Shown here in pieces: positions 10,716-37,164 of a stretch of 37,164 nucleotides of DNA. The position numbers were made by a program, and so were the translations under genes. The number at the start of each line of letters is the position of its first letter. The first letter of the stretch is position 1. The notes below the pieces were generated by a model, which saw only the letters and a list, made by a program, of their open reading frames with translations, was not told the origin of the DNA and searched no databases. The stretch comes from Flavobacteriales bacterium (GTDB lineage Bacteria; Bacteroidota; Bacteroidia; Flavobacteriales_D; CANHHI01). The DNA is taken from contig CANHHI010000001.1 in the NCBI GenBank assembly GCA_947460225.1, forward strand, positions 1 to 37,164. Direction: 5' to 3'.

Positions 10716-10745
10716 AAGAATGCACATGGATTACAATATCTGGTT

Positions 10746-10768
10746 GGGAACGGTTTATAACCGTTCCC
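10746..10768 (+). repeat. 10-bp perfect hairpin gggaacggtt-tat-aaccgttccc (paralog at 33824..33846)
   Basis: Perfect inverted repeat seen directly. Its reverse translation gives the GNGYKPFPT string in the spurious uvrB extension. Confidence 0.65.
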
Positions 10769-10989
10769 AAAAAACGCATACCCGTACTCCATAAAACCCA
10801 TAAAACAATTTAGGAGCTATTGTTTGTTTATAACCATTCAAAAAACGCCTGCGCCGTAGGTGCAGATTAAAATGGACTAGGTCTGCAAAAATATTTTCAT
10901 TTTGGGTATGGTTAATTGGGAAAATTTGTTTATTTTAGACCCATAACCGCAAAATAATAACTAAATAACCTTTTAAAATTCTCAATTTC

Positions 10990-17446: not shown

Positions 17447-18857
17447 ATTTTAAGCGCAATAAAGCAACACTCTCCACATGGTGCGTATGTGGAAACAAGT
17501 CCACGGGTTGCACCTGTTCAATGGTGTAAAATTCTTGCATCAAGGCTAAATCACGGGCTTGTGTGCTTGCATTGCAACTCACGTAAATCAATTTGGGCGC
17601 ACGCATGTTTAAAATCTGCGCCACAACATCGCCGTGCATACCCGAACGTGGCGGATCCACAATCAGCACATCTGGTTTGCCATGTGTTAAAACAAATTCA
17701 TCGTTGAGCACATCTTTCATGTCGCCAGCAAAAAACTGTGCATGATCAATGCCATTGATTTGGGCGTTGATTTTTGCATCGGTAATGGCATCTTCCACGT
17801 ATTCCACACCAATGACTTTTTTGCAATTTTTACCCACAAACTGCGCAATAGTACCCGTTCCCGTGTATAAATCATACAGCACATCTGTGGCTTGAATATC
17901 CGCAAAATCACGAATAATTTTATACAAAACCAAGGCTTGCCGAGAATTTGTTTGGTAAAAACTTTTGGCACTCACCTTAAAACGCAAATCTTCCATTTCT
18001 TCCCAAATAAAGTCTCTGCCTTTAAAGGTGTATAATTCTTGGTCTATCCAAGTGTCGTTGGCTTTTAAATTATACGCATAAAGCCAAGATTGCACCTCTG
18101 GAAATGCCAAAGATAATTTTTCCAACAATTGAAATTCCTTGTCTTTTTCTTCTTCCGACATGGCTTGATGCAAAATCAAAAGCACCATGTTTTCGCCCGT
18201 CAAAGCAGTTCTTATCATCAAGGTGCGCAGAAAACCTTTTTGCAAACGCAAATCATAAAAAGACATGCCGAGCTCCACCGCATATTCCCTCACGGTATTG
18301 CGCAAACGATTGGAAAACTCCGTTTGCAAATAACATGTTTCAACATCGACAATTTTGTCAAAACGCCCCGACACGTGAAATCCCAAAGCAGATTCTTGGA
18401 TAACCGCATCGCTTTTTACTTCTTCTTCGGTGAGCCAACGCTTGTTGGAAAAAGTAAATTCTAGTTTATTTCTATAAAAAGTTGTGTCTTGACAGCCAAT
18501 AATCGGCTGAAAATGTTCAACGTCCAACTTGCCCAAACGAATAAAAGCATCTTGCACTTGTTTTTGTTTGTACAAGAGTTGCGTTTCATAGTTCATGTTT
18601 TGCCATTTGCAACCCCCACAAACGCCAAAATGCTTGCAAAAAGGCGTTTCTCTATTTACAGACGGCTCAACAATACTTAGCAAGCGTGCTTCTAAATAAT
18701 TTTTCTTTTTGCGGAAAACCTCCACTTCTACCACATCTCCTGGCACACCACCCGCCACAAAAACCACTTGATTTTCGTGCCTGCCCAAGGCGATGCCTTC
18801 ATTGGTTGCTTCATGCAAAGCAAGTGTCATGCGGTAATTGTCTATTTTTTTTGCCAT
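17445..18857 (-). CDS. rlmD: 23S rRNA (uracil-C5)-methyltransferase, RlmD/RumA family
   Basis: N-terminal TRAM-like segment (GIALGRHENQVVFVAGGVPGDVVEVEV), Cys cluster CKHFGVCGGCKWQ, SAM-binding DLYTGTGTI and catalytic YVSCN. Confidence 0.85.
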   Translation of the reverse strand: MAKKIDNYRMTLALHEATNEGIALGRHENQVVFVAGGVPGDVVEVEVFRKKKNYLEARLLSIVEPSVNRETPFCKHFGVCGGCKWQNMNYETQLLYKQKQVQDAFIRLGKLDVEHFQPIIGCQDTTFYRNKLEFTFSNKRWLTEEEVKSDAVIQESALGFHVSGRFDKIVDVETCYLQTEFSNRLRNTVREYAVELGMSFYDLRLQKGFLRTLMIRTALTGENMVLLILHQAMSEEEKDKEFQLLEKLSLAFPEVQSWLYAYNLKANDTWIDQELYTFKGRDFIWEEMEDLRFKVSAKSFYQTNSRQALVLYKIIRDFADIQATDVLYDLYTGTGTIAQFVGKNCKKVIGVEYVEDAITDAKINAQINGIDHAQFFAGDMKDVLNDEFVLTHGKPDVLIVDPPRSGMHGDVVAQILNMRAPKLIYVSCNASTQARDLALMQEFYTIEQVQPVDLFPHTHHVESVALLRLK

Positions 18858-19408
18858 AAACCTTCTGGGAAAACACAGTAATCCATTTGTAAATCTTTGT
18901 CGTGTAGTTCTGTTATAGGTTCTGTCAAAGGAGGAAAGAGAGAAAGTCCAATTTTTAACACATGACTATCCAAATTAGCCACAAAATAATCGTAATACCC
19001 TTTTCCGTAACCTATCCTGTATCCCTTTTCGTCAAAAGCCAGCAAAGGCAATAAAATCACATCTATTTGTTTGCCGTCTATTTTTTCACCCAGCATCGGT
19101 TCTGGAATGCCCAAAGCATTTTCTTTGCAAGGCGTTTCTTTTTCCAATAAAAAAGTTTCCAGTCCTTGTTCTATCATTTTAGGCACGCAAACCGCTATGT
19201 TTTTTTGCCACAAAGCATGTACAATGGGCAGGGTGTCTATTTCGTGCTGAGCAGCGATAGGCAAAAACACGTGCACCAATTTGGTGTTGTCCCATATCGG
19301 CAAATCAAAAAGCCTTTGCACAAGGGCGTGTTCTTTTTCCTGTTTTTGCGTAGCTTCTAAGGCTAAACGCATGCTTTTATATTGTTGTCTGATTTCCTGT
19401 TTGTTCAT
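18842..19408 (-). CDS. 5-formyltetrahydrofolate cyclo-ligase
   Basis: 188 aa with [17 protein letters not shown] and [22 protein letters not shown], the MTHFS signature. Overlaps obg by 32 nt and rlmD by 16 nt. Confidence 0.8.
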
Positions 19409-32646: not shown

Positions 32647-33171
32647 CTATTCGTTTATTATACTGGTGTCTTGTGTAGTTTTCAAAAATTCATCAAAAAG
32701 ACTTACGTATTCTTGGCTCACGCCCCAAAGTTCTTTTTTAAGCCCCGCAATTTCTTCTTGTTGCATCATCATGCGGTTTTGCAAACCTTGAATGGTCTTT
32801 TCTATTTGCGACATCTGCCCCGTCCTATTTTGCAATTTACTTTTAAGCAGGCTAATTTTTTCTTGGCTTTCTTTTTGCAAAGTGGCAATTTGCGTCAAAT
32901 CTTCCCTAAGCCTATCCGATAAGTCTTGTTTTTTGCCTTTTTCCCGCAAATGAGTATAACCAAAAATTTCCTGTTTTTTTTGCGTAAGATGCGCCAAATT
33001 CTGTTCCATCTCGGCATAAAAACCAATTAAATTATCAATAAGCGTGTCTCTTTGCGCAATTTCTTGCCTCAAATTCGCCGTTTGTTCTCCGCAGTCTTGT
33101 GTAATTTGCTCTTTTGTGCTGGGCTTACAAGACAAAGCCAAACAGAGCAAAGCCATATATCTATTTTTCAT
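32647..33171 (-). CDS. Coiled-coil lipoprotein, function unknown
   Basis: Lipobox-like MALLCLALSC at the N-terminus. The remainder is heptad-rich and Q/E/K-rich. Stop lies 2 nt from the ffh start. Confidence 0.6.
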   Translation of the reverse strand: MKNRYMALLCLALSCKPSTKEQITQDCGEQTANLRQEIAQRDTLIDNLIGFYAEMEQNLAHLTQKKQEIFGYTHLREKGKKQDLSDRLREDLTQIATLQKESQEKISLLKSKLQNRTGQMSQIEKTIQGLQNRMMMQQEEIAGLKKELWGVSQEYVSLFDEFLKTTQDTSIINE

Positions 33172-33706
33172 GGATTAAACTCAAATAATGATGCAAAGGC
33201 TCCACCAAACTTTCTTTGGGTGATTTTGCAGGCAATTCTATAAAAAAATCGTACAATGTTTTCCATGCCAATTGCTGTTTTGCCACTTTAAAATGCGCTG
33301 GCACTTTGGCTAAAACACCCTTGATAAAATGCGCTCTGTCATCGGTAAAATCAATAGCTATATCCACTTTAAGGTTAGCGACCAAACGCATCACCTCTTT
33401 TTTGGGCAAACCCGAAAAAAACCGAGCATCTTTGGCAGTAAACACAAAATCAAAAGGCAAATCTTCTTTGAGCATTTTCTTTTGGCGCACGTAGGCAATT
33501 TTAACCACCTGCGCAATATTGTATTTTTGTTTCAAAGTGCCAGCAAAACTATTGACAAGTTCTATATCTTTGGGTTTTTCTACCTCAATAAGCAACAAAA
33601 CGCTTTTGGCATCTGCATAGCCAAGCACCCTGCGCAACCTTGGCGTAGTTCTTCGGTTGAGCAAAAAATGGGCTAATTTATATCTTAACTGGGCAAACAT
33701 GGGCAT
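33161..33706 (-). CDS. Hypothetical protein (181 aa), first gene of the ffh-containing co-directional cluster
   Basis: Intact ORF with a consensus promoter 22 nt upstream. Overlaps the next gene by 11 nt. No family recognised. Confidence 0.6.
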   Translation of the reverse strand: MPMFAQLRYKLAHFLLNRRTTPRLRRVLGYADAKSVLLLIEVEKPKDIELVNSFAGTLKQKYNIAQVVKIAYVRQKKMLKEDLPFDFVFTAKDARFFSGLPKKEVMRLVANLKVDIAIDFTDDRAHFIKGVLAKVPAHFKVAKQQLAWKTLYDFFIELPAKSPKESLVEPLHHYLSLIHEK

Positions 33707-33727
33707 TATTTAGATAAAACCAAATAG

Positions 33728-33758
33728 CAAAAGTAAAGATTTTTAGTCAAATTACAAA
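33728..33758 (-). promoter_or_regulatory. Consensus promoter for the 33706 -> 25584 gene cluster
   Basis: The reverse strand reads TTTG-taatttgactaaaaatctt(N19)-TACTTTTG. The -7 box ends 21 nt before ATG 33706. Confidence 0.6.
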
Positions 33759-33821
33759 ATATTCACGAACACAGTCCGTTTTATTCTGCACCTGCGGTGC
33801 AGGCAAGATACACGCAAAAAT

Positions 33822-33846
33822 GTAGGGAACGGTTTGTAACCGTTCC
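33822..33846 (+). repeat. REP-like unit: GTAG head plus 9-bp hairpin (gtagggaacggtt-tgt-aaccgttcc)
   Basis: Perfect palindrome; paralog of 10746..10768. Confidence 0.6.
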
Positions 33847-33853
33847 AAAAATA

Positions 33854-33879
33854 GAAACCCCACCTTTCGGTAGGGTTTC
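33854..33879 (+). repeat. Hairpin gaaaccccacc-tttc-ggtagggtttc, followed by two further GTAG heads (33883..33898)
   Basis: 10 of 11 positions pair, with a tttc loop. GTAG motifs recur at ggtaggg, tgtagaa and agtaggg. Confidence 0.5.
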
Positions 33880-34167
33880 CTTGTAGAAGTAGGGTTTCAC
33901 GTACACACCCCAAACGACAAATAAAATTAAAATACCTACGCATCGCCAGCTGGTGCGCATCTGCCGTATGCAAACAGATAAAACACCGCAATTCATCTAT
34001 GTTGCAAGCAACCTAGGTAAACAGATTAGATTTTGCTGGTTTTAGCCTGTGTTTGTTTGAGCACGTGGAAGTGACTAAAACCAAAATACAACCAAGCATA
34101 GCTATAACTCTCCGAGCCTTTTTAGATTAACGCCGTTACGCCAAAAACCCCTACACTGCTGTACAAC

Positions 34168-34350
34168 AAAAAACCCAACCTGACGATTTGTAAAGTTGCT
34201 ATTCCAAATGTCGTTCAGCGTGTAAAACACGCCGCGGACAACAAACGCCTTGCAGCGGGGTTATCCGTCAGGTTGGGTTATATTTAAAAGACTATAACCC
34301 CAGCCGATTTTTTCGGCGTGTTTTTGTCCAAAACGGACATTTAGAATAGC
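34168..34350 (-). ncRNA. Candidate structured small RNA or leader (~185 nt), class unknown
   Basis: A consensus promoter ends 4 nt upstream. An 18-bp helix joins 34350..34332 to 34215..34198. Hairpins at 34317..34303, 34300..34275 and 34234..34216. An alternative 15-bp helix joins 34279..34265 to 34186..34172 and is followed by a U-run. Three imperfect pairs are G-U on the minus strand but A-C on the plus strand. No ORF. Confidence 0.4.
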
Positions 34351-34354
34351 ACCA

Positions 34355-34387
34355 CAAAGGTACAAACTTTTTAATTAAAGTTCCAAA
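34355..34387 (-). promoter_or_regulatory. Orphan consensus promoter inside the ORF-free gap
   Basis: The reverse strand reads TTTG-gaactttaattaaaaagtttg(N21)-TACCTTTG. No protein gene follows. Confidence 0.55.
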
Positions 34388-34437
34388 TTTTTGGGCAAAA
34401 TTTTTAAAATAAATTTCATTTTTCTAGGAATTAAATA

Positions 34438-34468
34438 GCCTGCCGTAGGCAGAATAAATCGATCTGTG
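34438..34468. repeat. Solo inverted end of the TIR/hairpin family, directly after the GT4 gene stop
   Basis: The reverse complement cacagatcgatttattctgcctacggcaggc aligns with 33770..33804 (cacagtccgttttattctgcacctgcggtgcaggc). The hairpin is shortened symmetrically from a 7-bp to a 5-bp stem. Confidence 0.55.
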
Positions 34469-34476
34469 ACCGCAGG

Positions 34477-35667
34477 CTATGCCTGTTTGGAGGCAAGGAG
34501 GGTTTTGCAGTAAAACAATAAACCCAGCCCACAAGCTACATAAAGCAGAAAACCTATAAATTGCCCATTGGCTTGAAAAAACCGAGAAAGCAAAATCACG
34601 GTAAATACGGCGCATATAGAAAAAATGCCAGCACAAGTTGTGGCACGTGCATGGCTAAGCCCTAGGGAAAGCAAATGGTGGTGCAAATGGTTTTTATCAC
34701 CCACAAAGGGAGATTTTCCACTGGCTGTGCGCAATACAAACACCCGCAAAGTATCCAAAAGCGGATATACCGACAGACTCATGGCAAAAACGGGCTTATT
34801 TACTTTGGCTAAAACATTGTGCCAGCTGGGCAGGGTTTTATAAAAATCATCGTGTGATAAATACTCCAAGGTTAAAAATGCCACAACGCCACCCAAGAGT
34901 AAACTGCCCATATTACCTAGAAAAATCCGCTGTTTCTTGCTGATGTTATAGTATAAAAACGCCCAACAAGCCCCAGAAGTCCCCCAAGACACGAGGGCAA
35001 AAATTTGGTCTTGATTGCCCAAATGCACAAAGCCAAAAAATGCTGTGCTAATGCCAACAACCGTAGCAAGCAAACCATCTATACCATCGGCAAGGTTGTG
35101 GGCATTCACAAAAACAATCCATACAAAAAAAGAAAACAAAATGGAAAACCAAGTGGGCAATTCCTCCACACCCAAAACGCCATAAAAACTTTGTATGCGC
35201 AAATCGGGATTAAAAAAAATAAAAAAACCCGCTATGGCTTGCCCTATAAATCTTTGGTTGGCGGATTCTTTGAGCATATCGTCTTTTGCACCCAAAAGGA
35301 AAAGCAAAAAAGTAGCCAAAAAGAAACTTTTAAATTTGCGCAACGCCCAAGGGCTAATCTCGGCAGGGAAAAACAAAATATAGGTAAGCACCAGCGATAA
35401 AAAAATCAAAACCCCTCCTGCCGTTGGTACTACGCCATGATGCGTTTTGTGCTGTTCGGTGGGCTTGTCTAAGAGTTCTGTTTTTCTGAGCATAATTCTA
35501 TACACAGGAACACTCAAAAAAACGAATAAAAATCCAGCAAACAATGCCCAAATACTTTTTTTCCAAATAAGATAAGAAACAGGTATTTGCAACTCTTGCC
35601 ACAGCAAAATATTCATCATTTTTTCATACATTTTACTCAAAGTTAATTTTTTTCTGCCAGCTTTCAT
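34477..35667 (-). CDS. Glycosyltransferase family 4 (MraY/WecA-like) polyprenyl-phosphate sugar-1-phosphate transferase
   Basis: About 10 TM segments. Motifs NAHNLADGIDGL and GDKNHLHHHLL match the conserved DG.DGL and HxHH motifs of the MraY/WecA superfamily. The exact start is uncertain. Confidence 0.85.
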   Translation of the reverse strand: MKAGRKKLTLSKMYEKMMNILLWQELQIPVSYLIWKKSIWALFAGFLFVFLSVPVYRIMLRKTELLDKPTEQHKTHHGVVPTAGGVLIFLSLVLTYILFFPAEISPWALRKFKSFFLATFLLFLLGAKDDMLKESANQRFIGQAIAGFFIFFNPDLRIQSFYGVLGVEELPTWFSILFSFFVWIVFVNAHNLADGIDGLLATVVGISTAFFGFVHLGNQDQIFALVSWGTSGACWAFLYYNISKKQRIFLGNMGSLLLGGVVAFLTLEYLSHDDFYKTLPSWHNVLAKVNKPVFAMSLSVYPLLDTLRVFVLRTASGKSPFVGDKNHLHHHLLSLGLSHARATTCAGIFSICAVFTVILLSRFFQANGQFIGFLLYVACGLGLLFYCKTLLASKQA

Positions 35668-36967: not shown

Positions 36968-37164
36968 TTAAAACCCTTTGGGGCTTAAATTCTTAAACTG
37001 CGCCAAACGCCAAGCCAACTGAAAAATATGCTGTGTTCTTTTTTGCAAAAGTTCGTATTGAATTTTTTCGGCAGTATCGGTGCTTTTGTGGTAATCCGCA
37101 TGAAAACCGCCAAAATAAAATATAGCTGGCACATTTTGCTTAACAAAAGAATAATGGTCGGAGC
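36968..37164 (-). CDS. C-terminal 64 codons of an M28-family peptidase; the 5' part lies beyond the window end. Not in the ORF track.
   Basis: The reverse strand translates as SDHYSFVKQNVPAIFYFGGFHADYHKSTDTAEKIQYELLQKRTQHIFQLAWRLAQFKNLSPKGF*. SDH..F and H..YH...D are the C-terminal metal-ligand region pattern of M28 aminopeptidases. Confidence 0.65.
   Translation of the reverse strand, partial: SDHYSFVKQNVPAIFYFGGFHADYHKSTDTAEKIQYELLQKRTQHIFQLAWRLAQFKNLSPKGF

Follow-up and report, generated by a model that had tools for sequence, protein, structure and literature searches.

A candidate structured small RNA of no known class on a strain-variable intergenic islet of a narrow Flavobacteriales lineage

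In Bacteroides, the canonical intergenic sRNA has its own start site and a 3' terminator, and in B. thetaiotaomicron 27 of the 49 intergenic sRNAs called with high confidence are strain-specific (PMC7366714). The independent transcripts of F. psychrophilum are 176 nt long at the median, with strong structure in 40% of them (PMC9723704). The locus described here, found in a stretch of DNA of 37,164 nucleotides (the window), resembles these Bacteroidota sRNAs in having an orphan sigma-A promoter, a length of about 180 nt, a strong predicted structure and a 3' U-run, and, like the 27 of B. thetaiotaomicron, it is strain-restricted; it has no sequence or Rfam kinship with them. Whereas those sRNAs end in a compact hairpin, the terminator stem of the candidate is a long-range helix of 14-15 bp reaching over 80 nt, and unlike GibS, which exposes a single-stranded 5' seed, the common allele of the candidate holds its 5' end in an 18-bp closing stem. 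Own sigma-A promoter and intergenic position, the marks of a canonical sRNA, are both present at the level of the sequence. As this anatomy and the precedent of strain restriction point the same way, we favour a stand-alone, independently transcribed structured sRNA of ~183 nt, lineage-restricted, carried on a variable islet of ~610 nt and acting in trans, a reading to which we give an even chance of being correct.

The candidate lies in a 770-nt gap between a gene for a GT4 (WecA/MraY-like) transferase (34477-35667) and one for a DUF6913 protein (33161-33700/33706), the latter side continuing, in a DUF6913-ffh-folD operon, with a 174-aa ORF, ffh and folD. All neighbouring genes are housekeeping genes and all are on the minus strand. 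The GT4 gene has its own terminator-like hairpin (34453-34439) and a copy of the promoter motif stands at 33758-33728, 22 nt before the next gene, and the islet unit is therefore considered transcriptionally separate from both neighbours. A reading of this DNA made from the sequence alone, hereafter the sequence-only reading, had called the gap free of ORFs. This agrees with our searches, as all open frames of at least 24 residues in the six frames of the islet, joined, matched none of 5.8 billion predicted proteins, and a protein-coding reading of the islet was dropped. The features of the islet are collected in Table 1.

Table 1. Positions of the islet, the candidate RNA and its structural and variable elements in the window.
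Feature	Position	Strand	Basis or remark
Islet, ~610 nt, ends approximate	34437..33828	minus	promoter, RNA, non-coding tail, two terminators
Inverted repeat, left arm	34449..34468		inverted-repeat search: 20 nt, 85% complementary
Inverted repeat, right arm	33770..33789		partner of the 34449..34468 arm
Promoter, Bacteroidota sigma-A type (predicted)	34387..34355	minus	-33 TTTG 34387-34384, N21 spacer, -7 box TACCTTTG 34362-34355
Structured RNA, ~183 nt (predicted)	34350..34168	minus	fold z = -5.84; no Rfam family
P1 5' strand, RNA 1-19	34350..34332	minus	sequence; P1 pair probability 0.998 in allele A
P1b, 11-bp perfect long-range helix	34324-34314 with 34234-34224	minus	RNA 27-37 with 117-127
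Hairpin 1	34317..34303	minus	GCCGA-AAAAA-UCGGC
Hairpin 2	34300..34275	minus	GGGUUAUA-N10-UAUAACCC; 5 nt in common with P2 5' arm
P2 5' arm	34279..34265	minus	inverted-repeat search: 14 nt, 100% complementary
Hairpin X	34267..34235	minus	CGGAUAAC...GUUGUCCG, inner stem with GCAA tetraloop cap
Hairpin 3	34234..34216	minus	CGGCGUG-UUUUA-CACGCUG; competes with P1b
P1 3' strand, RNA 136-153	34215..34198	minus	sequence; swapped out in allele B
P2 3' arm and U-run	34186-34172 and 34173-34168	minus	presumed intrinsic terminator (predicted)
Hypervariable patch, 109 nt	34210..34102	minus	allele A (window, L087, L091, L092) vs allele B (L083)
Variable blocks	V1 34210-34193, V2 34167-34154, one SNP 34145, V4 34114-34102	minus	within the patch
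Tandem intrinsic terminators (predicted)	33880-33853 and 33846-33826	minus	terminator scan; close the islet

The exact consensus promoter that had been claimed for the minus strand was confirmed in the sequence, and its two boxes correspond to the sigma-A consensus of Bacteroidota, TTTG / TAnnTTTG (PMC7366714). The motif TTTG-N19-21-TAnnTTTG is overrepresented in the window, with 8 matches against 2.16 expected and no shuffle out of 100 reaching 8, and several of its further copies are found just upstream of genes, so the motif appears to be used by the host organism. As the -7 box of Flavobacterium spans -12 to -5 (PMC9723704), the predicted +1 is 34350, the very first base of P1. In a motif scan of the islet this was the sole promoter motif, and its sequence is the same in all five loci that carry the islet.

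The observation on which the sequence-only reading was built is real: P1, the three hairpins, P2 and the U-run were verified in the sequence with all their coordinates and pairings. Its list of elements was correct as far as it went, and it overlooked hairpin X, which has a pair probability of 0.95-0.99 in both alleles described below, and the long-range helix P1b, which competes with hairpins 1 and 3. P1 comprises 18 bp, one of them G-U, plus one bulged C, and at the DNA level its arms can be extended to ~28 nt with an internal loop. P2 is a perfect 14-nt inverted repeat with a terminal G-U pair followed by U6, and its duplex energy is -26.3 kcal/mol. Folding a 196-nt stretch gave an MFE of -71.2 kcal/mol for the minus strand (z = -5.84, equalled by none of 200 shuffles) and of -62.0 kcal/mol for the plus strand (z = -4.94), a preference for the minus strand of about 9-10 kcal/mol, and the G-U pairs of the minus-strand fold, five of five, turn into A-C on the plus strand. 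The claim of a strand-specific structure is thus upheld. The 283 nt located 3' of the U-run are not structured above random (z = -0.15), which delimits the structured unit as a discrete one of ~183 nt.

Five assemblies from four or five samples carry the islet, i.e., the window and contigs L083, L087, L091 and L092 (the last in part). Promoter, scaffold and P2 are identical in these five copies, and the identity of the scaffold across loci is not above that of the flanks (99.7%). Over 12.7 kb, contig L083 shares 99.74% identity with the window, and of the 37 differences 29 fall within a single patch that defines allele B, the other four loci having allele A. Block V1 covers the core of the P1 3' strand; its sequence is CAUUUGGAAUAGCAACUU in allele A but GACGUAUCUUAUUCAACC in allele B, by which 13 of the 18 bases of this strand are swapped. 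As the P1 5' strand is unchanged, with no compensating change, P1 cannot form in allele B. V2 carries a 2-nt indel between the alleles. The blocks between the V blocks are constant in a patch that is otherwise 27% diverged, and they include UACAAAUCGUCAGGUUGGGUUUUUU, which is the P2 3' arm with the U-run; the U-run itself has 6 U in allele A and 7 U in allele B. The sequence-only reading had named uncompensated breakage of P1 and P2 in homologous loci as evidence against its proposal. Such breakage is seen for P1, in L083 only, and P2 is intact in all five loci. Judged from these sequences P1, the most striking helix of the fold, is dispensable in the L083 allele and would not be an essential part of the element, since it is lost there uncompensated.

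Apart from the patch, two point differences were noted among the islet copies, a G to A change in the loop of hairpin 2 (L087, L091 and L092) and a G to T change at 34351 that would lengthen P1, though at predicted position -1. The copies, near-identical outside the patch, provide no covariation for any helix. P1 being an artefact of assembly is ruled out by its G-U pair and bulge and by its recurrence in four independent assemblies.

Allele B is best read, from the pattern of its differences, as an imported patch whose donor would be a further, as yet unseen copy of the element (a paralogue, or the version of another lineage) that has diverged more and in which the constant blocks would be conserved and the V blocks not. 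A second small cluster of SNPs at 37124-37142, in L083 and L085, carries the alleles of the sister lineage at four of five positions, indicating that these populations are recombination mosaics. No source of the allele B blocks was found elsewhere in the window and the related contigs compared, and a search for a partner of allele B V1 in the element or the window returned duplexes no better than those of shuffled queries. An inversion of the block is excluded, as the V1 sequences of the two alleles are not reverse complements of each other, and a diversity-generating retroelement (DGR) was rejected, as the substitutions hit all bases rather than adenine specifically and no reverse transcriptase is present. 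A 42-codon ORF runs across the variable patch, and in allele B its reading frame is shifted, as determined by hand from the alignment.

The exchange has a marked effect on the predicted fold. In the nested ensemble of allele A the pair probability of P1 is 0.998, that of P1b 0.75, that of P2 0 and those of hairpins 1 and 3 0.21-0.25, whereas in allele B the corresponding values are 0, 0.08, 0.86 and 0.92. Under pseudoknot-free folding the common allele is thus modelled as locked in P1 and the rare allele as locked in P2. The sequence-only reading had considered the two folds either mutually exclusive or a pseudoknot. Exclusivity holds only if pseudoknots are forbidden, as P1 and P2 have no nucleotide in common and merely cross each other; the true overlaps are between hairpin 2 and P2 (5 nt) and between hairpins 1 and 3 and P1b. 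With the P2 arms held free, the remaining fold has -61.8 kcal/mol, and adding the P2 duplex brings the sum to about -88 kcal/mol before any pseudoknot penalty, compared with -70.7 kcal/mol for the best nested fold. The estimate is a rough one that leaves penalty and steric fit aside. Since the sum beats either nested fold and no base is shared, bistability of P1 and P2 is not required, and it is energetically plausible that the two coexist as a pseudoknot.

The 3' end is the element for which a cis-acting role comes into question. The consensus terminator scan does not call P2 with the U-run, whose "loop" is 80 nt, and U6 follows either P2, with 80 nt between its arms, or a local hairpin, which is 6 bp in allele A and 9 bp, directly 5' of the U-run, in allele B. 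The tandem terminators are positioned 290-340 nt beyond the U-run with no promoter between, a hint that part of the transcripts may extend past the U-run. It is therefore conceivable, although we think it rather unlikely, that the RNA is a leader or conditional terminator in which P1, resembling an anti-terminator, and P2 with the U-run gate a tail of ~320 nt, the switch being driven by a ligand or by temperature or being fixed by the allele. The opposite P1 and P2 probabilities of the two nested ensembles would fit such a gate, and so would the short local hairpin of allele A and the layout of the islet, whose sole promoter precedes the RNA and yet strong terminators stand far past the U-run. 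The tail holds a 28-codon ORF (34099..34013, MLGCILVLVTSTCSNKHRLKPAKSNLFT) ahead of the tandem terminators, and block V4 adjoins its ATG. Like riboswitch and attenuator leaders, the candidate has alternative long-range helices and a U-run after a partly sequestered helix, 5 nt of the P2 5' arm being taken up by hairpin 2. Against this role, P1 and P2 cross rather than overlap, the pseudoknot sum is more stable than the nested fold, and the "switch" lies between alleles and not within one sequence. None of the frames in the tail found a homologue among the 5.8 billion proteins, the tail is not structured, and 11 ORFs of the 28-codon size occur by chance in the 640 nt; the ORF itself has a hydrophobic stretch of 12 residues and its AUG is within a predicted hairpin. 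No riboswitch of Rfam matches and no aptamer is recognisable, nor is there a recognisable downstream gene to regulate in cis, the next gene having its own promoter. The riboswitch-like ON/OFF leader put forward by the sequence-only reading does not agree with two closing terminators, a missing downstream gene and non-overlapping helices, and the RNA is probably not a riboswitch leader, although the distal terminators and the allele-dependent P1 and P2 leave room for regulated read-through into the tail.

Turning from the RNA to the islet, the contigs compared come from the only close cluster of the flanking GT4 protein (96%), the next GT4 relatives being at 40% identity, and the uncultured host lineage is isolated, as its Ffh is at most 59% identical to that of any GTDB species representative among the matches listed. 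The loci recovered comprise four with allele A, one with allele B and two kinds without the element. In contigs L081 and L082 of the sister lineage (~95% nucleotide identity) the islet is missing, 23 nt replacing its ~610 nt, and 177 nt separate GT4 from DUF6913. In a third lineage (L097 and L098-L101) the RNA is absent at the locus and an ORF of ~530 aa is found there instead. The arms of the bounding inverted repeat vary in concert between lineages, and the empty 56-bp core has opposite orientations in L100 and L081, with 50 of 56 positions identical in the reverse complement and no forward alignment. Based on the indel and the inverted core we read the islet, from these sequences, as cargo mid-way in a recombinogenic core bounded by inverted repeats. 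The "repeat-bounded segment" of the sequence-only reading is in this way borne out in a more specific form, namely a strain-variable islet within a core that another lineage carries inverted.

Such a setting raises the thought that the element is a mobile or recombinogenic relic, with P1 supplying the terminal inverted repeat for a MITE-like unit (34359..34187) or with the islet as cargo placed in an invertible site prone to insertions, and with fold and promoter as mere by-products without any RNA function. We consider this unlikely. Presence and absence at a hot spot of three states, the bounding repeats with their inverted core and the extension of the P1 arms at the DNA level would all be accounted for, and breaks of three independent assemblies at 34361-34369, just ahead of the RNA, would fit a repeat. 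The unit resembles MITEs such as the Correia elements of Neisseria in its ~170 bp, its imperfect terminal inverted repeats of ~18-28 bp, its intergenic position, the long stem it would form when transcribed and its presence or absence among strains. Unlike MITEs, it is single-copy and without target-site duplication in the sequence examined, and what is polymorphic is the 610-nt islet and not the 173-bp inverted-repeat unit. A second copy was found neither in the window nor in relatives of 44 kb and 47 kb, nor in 83 loci searched with a covariance model, nor in the collection scans; no target-site duplication is seen at the P1 arms or the islet ends, and the islet has no terminal repeats of its own. 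Reverse transcriptase, Cas, transposase and recombinase domains are absent from the 37-kb window. A relic would also leave unexplained that five of five helix mismatches are G-U on the promoter strand and that +1 falls on the first base of P1.

The islet can likewise be compared with the invertons of Bacteroidales, with which it shares a promoter-bearing segment within inverted repeats and an empty core occurring in both orientations. It differs from them in that its arms are just 85% complementary, all five RNA-bearing copies share one orientation, no recombinase gene is nearby and the promoter drives an RNA predicted to end inside the segment.

As for known RNA classes, Rfam 15 gave zero matches at the gathering score in the whole window. 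At E<=10 (33650-34550) the RNA and its promoter collected only noise (TeloSII_ncR43 with 13 bits, AaHKsRNA82 with 20 bits), and the best match in the gap, BSnc120 with 25 bits where its gathering score is 114, corresponds to the terminator hairpins on the other strand. ARAGORN found neither tRNA nor tmRNA. That the element belongs to no known RNA class, as the sequence-only reading held, is thus supported by these searches. Its suggestion that homologues be sought in related Bacteroidota by nhmmer or blastn returned none: neither these two programs nor R1, a covariance model derived from the four complete copies, detected the element in 80 ffh loci taken from GTDB genomes of other Bacteroidota, whose Ffh is at most 59% identical among the matches listed, or in the element-free relatives. 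Phage and plasmid collections had no BLAST match to the islet. Exact 20-mers of the P2 arms had zero matches in two scans each of metagenome_contigs and viral_contigs, the metagenome collection scanned being not exhaustive, as JGI contig L091 carries the 20-mer of the 5' arm and yet went unmatched. No target of the RNA was found within the 37 kb.

That the element is a housekeeping RNA, for instance 6S RNA, too divergent for the Rfam models to recognise is in our view highly improbable. The similar length, the strong dedicated promoter and the paired 5' and 3' ends recall 6S and 6S-Flavo, in 75% of the ensemble of allele A a rod-like closing stem arises by stacking of P1 on P1b, and in so isolated a lineage a failure of the models is conceivable. 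Yet neither 6S, 6S-Flavo nor any other model matches at E<=10, and the interior is a multi-branch of hairpins (2 and X) rather than a large two-sided central bubble. Moreover, the element is not conserved at its locus in the 95%-identical L081 and L082, nor in L097-L101, and its closing stem is destroyed, and apparently dispensable, in allele B.

Several classes that depend on a partner gene were set aside, as no such gene (reverse transcriptase, Cas, IscB/TnpB or IS110 recombinase) is found and the neighbours are housekeeping genes; these are retron msr-msd, DGR template, CRISPR/tracrRNA, omega-RNA and IS110 bridge RNA. HEARO has no Rfam match at the locus, and the adenine-only changes of the retroelement type are also absent. 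A type I toxin-antitoxin pair was dismissed, as the islet has one promoter motif only, on the minus strand, and the 28-codon ORF contains a hydrophobic stretch of ~12 residues.

We return to the stand-alone sRNA, for which promoter, strand-specific fold, U-run and ORF-free gap all speak, in agreement with one of the two options of the sequence-only reading, an unclassified stand-alone sRNA. Starting from the observed sequence features, strand bias, indel and allelic patch, and from a promoter and a terminator that are predictions, we infer its transcription, 3' end and mode of action as follows. Sigma-A RNA polymerase would initiate at 34350 and the nascent RNA would fold into four local hairpins, upon which the 3'-proximal segment would pair with the 5' end to form P1. 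The 3' tail would then pair back into the core as P2 right before the U-run and the transcript would end near 34168. The product would be a compact RNA, possibly pseudoknotted, that may act in trans either as a base-pairing regulator through its exposed loops and linkers or as a protein-binding RNA. The segment forming the P1 3' strand would be evolutionarily exchangeable, and in one strain the recombination patch would free the 5' end, leaving P2 or the 9-bp local hairpin to dominate the 3' structure. As the exchangeable strand and the freed 5' end imply, the two alleles should, according to the models, differ in accessibility of the 5' end and probably in the efficiency of termination.

A bolder version of this proposal, which we regard as quite a long shot, is that the RNA is the first example of an undescribed class of compact pseudoknotted RNA, in which a terminator-adjacent cassette of ~18 nt could be exchanged by recombination, toggling the RNA between P1-closed and P2-open forms. 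If true, the invertible, insertion-prone intergenic site would hold a segment of genetically programmable specificity or accessibility, with cassettes exchanged between strains or paralogues.

What sets the element apart is its long-range terminator helix, a possible pseudoknot and an allele that swaps one strand of the closing stem. We therefore regard it as a new unclassified sRNA candidate, at present a candidate rather than a discovery, from a single narrow lineage. The two alleles amount to a natural experiment, in which two near-identical strains differ by a 109-nt patch that removes the closing helix, such that a comparison of environmental or cloned alleles could directly show what this helix does for stability, termination and target access. 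The gap between GT4 and DUF6913, with its three cargo states and inverted core, is a recombination hot spot and as such informative on the gain and loss of small non-coding genes. If transcribed, the element would be an unclassified, strongly structured sRNA in a phylum for which knowledge of RNA biology comes almost entirely from Bacteroides and Flavobacterium.

The gap between the GT4 and DUF6913 genes, 770 nt long in the window, is found in three states within one species complex, namely an empty gap of 177 nt, the 610-nt islet that carries the predicted small RNA, and an ORF of ~530 aa, which makes it a cargo hot spot. The ~530-aa ORF begins with METNTLTRKSLVKKMSLHAVGVCASLPLIGLGAC, a lipoprotein-like N-terminus, and no Pfam domain was found in it. 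The inverted repeat that bounds the gap is conserved across lineages, its two arms varying together from lineage to lineage, and reads TTTATTCTG/CAGAATAAA in the window and TTTAATCTG/CAGATTAAA in the sister-lineage contig L081. Between the arms lies a 56-bp core whose orientation in the third-lineage contigs L098-L101 is opposite to that in L081, with 50 of the 56 positions identical as reverse complement, which marks the core as a short invertible stretch; neither a promoter nor a recombinase is evident for it.

Of the two tandem terminators closing the islet, the hairpin GGAACGGTTACAAACCGTTCC and its 3' flank (33826-33846) have further copies in the genome at ~90% identity and so belong to a dispersed terminator-type repeat. 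The top Rfam near-match in the gap, BSnc120 (33816-33896, plus strand), scored 25.4 bits vs a gathering score of 114; a BSnc120 homologue was rejected, the match being an opposite-strand reading of both tandem terminator hairpins. One further contig, L088, begins at 33846, that is, at the second of these hairpins. Three independent short-read assemblies (L084, L085 and L093) end at 34361-34369, no more than 9 nt apart and just 5' of the RNA start, and these breaks could be due to a repeat, to population variation or to poor coverage of an AT-rich stretch.

Window coordinates of the features discussed, unless another contig is named
Feature	Position	Strand	Remark
GT4-DUF6913 gap	between GT4 34477-35667 and DUF6913 33161-33700		compared with L081, L097 and L100
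Inverted repeat bounding the gap	33770-33789 and 34449-34468; L081 11205-11300; L100 1740-1815
Recurrences of hairpin GGAACGGTTACAAACCGTTCC	10743-10772; L081 69-114		window copy upstream of uvrB
28-codon ORF MLGCILVLVTSTCSNKHRLKPAKSNLFT	34013-34099	-	start directly after variable block V4
5-formyltetrahydrofolate cyclo-ligase gene	18842-19408	-
Uninterrupted open frame, >1675 codons	1-5026	-	extends beyond window start
Consensus promoter near the >1675-codon frame	5077-5047
Positions given together with the 37124-37142 SNP cluster	35872, 35881

The 28-codon ORF, whose AUG lies inside a predicted hairpin, is likely explained by chance; it is identical in all copies and therefore permits no judgement of selection. 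In many Proteobacteria 6S RNA is located upstream of the 5-formyltetrahydrofolate cyclo-ligase gene. As obg, the immediate upstream neighbour of this gene in the window, overlaps it, there is no space for an RNA gene ahead of it. The metagenome_contigs scan returned no match for the 20-mer AACCCAACCTGACGGATAAC, which is contained in JGI contig L091 (JGI 3300043316), and thus empty scans there cannot prove absence.

Judging by its sequence, the >1675-codon frame encodes a giant repetitive surface protein, having a signal/anchor at the N-terminus (MIRKLNFAFGTLLVLGFSLALLFC) and many repeats of ~90 residues, each ending '...KTY.L...YL..EA.L'.

Compared with the window, L083 (a 99.74%-identical contig) and L085 carry five SNPs clustered within 19 nt. 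Since four of the five are the alleles of L081, we infer that lineages ~95% identical exchange short recombination imports.
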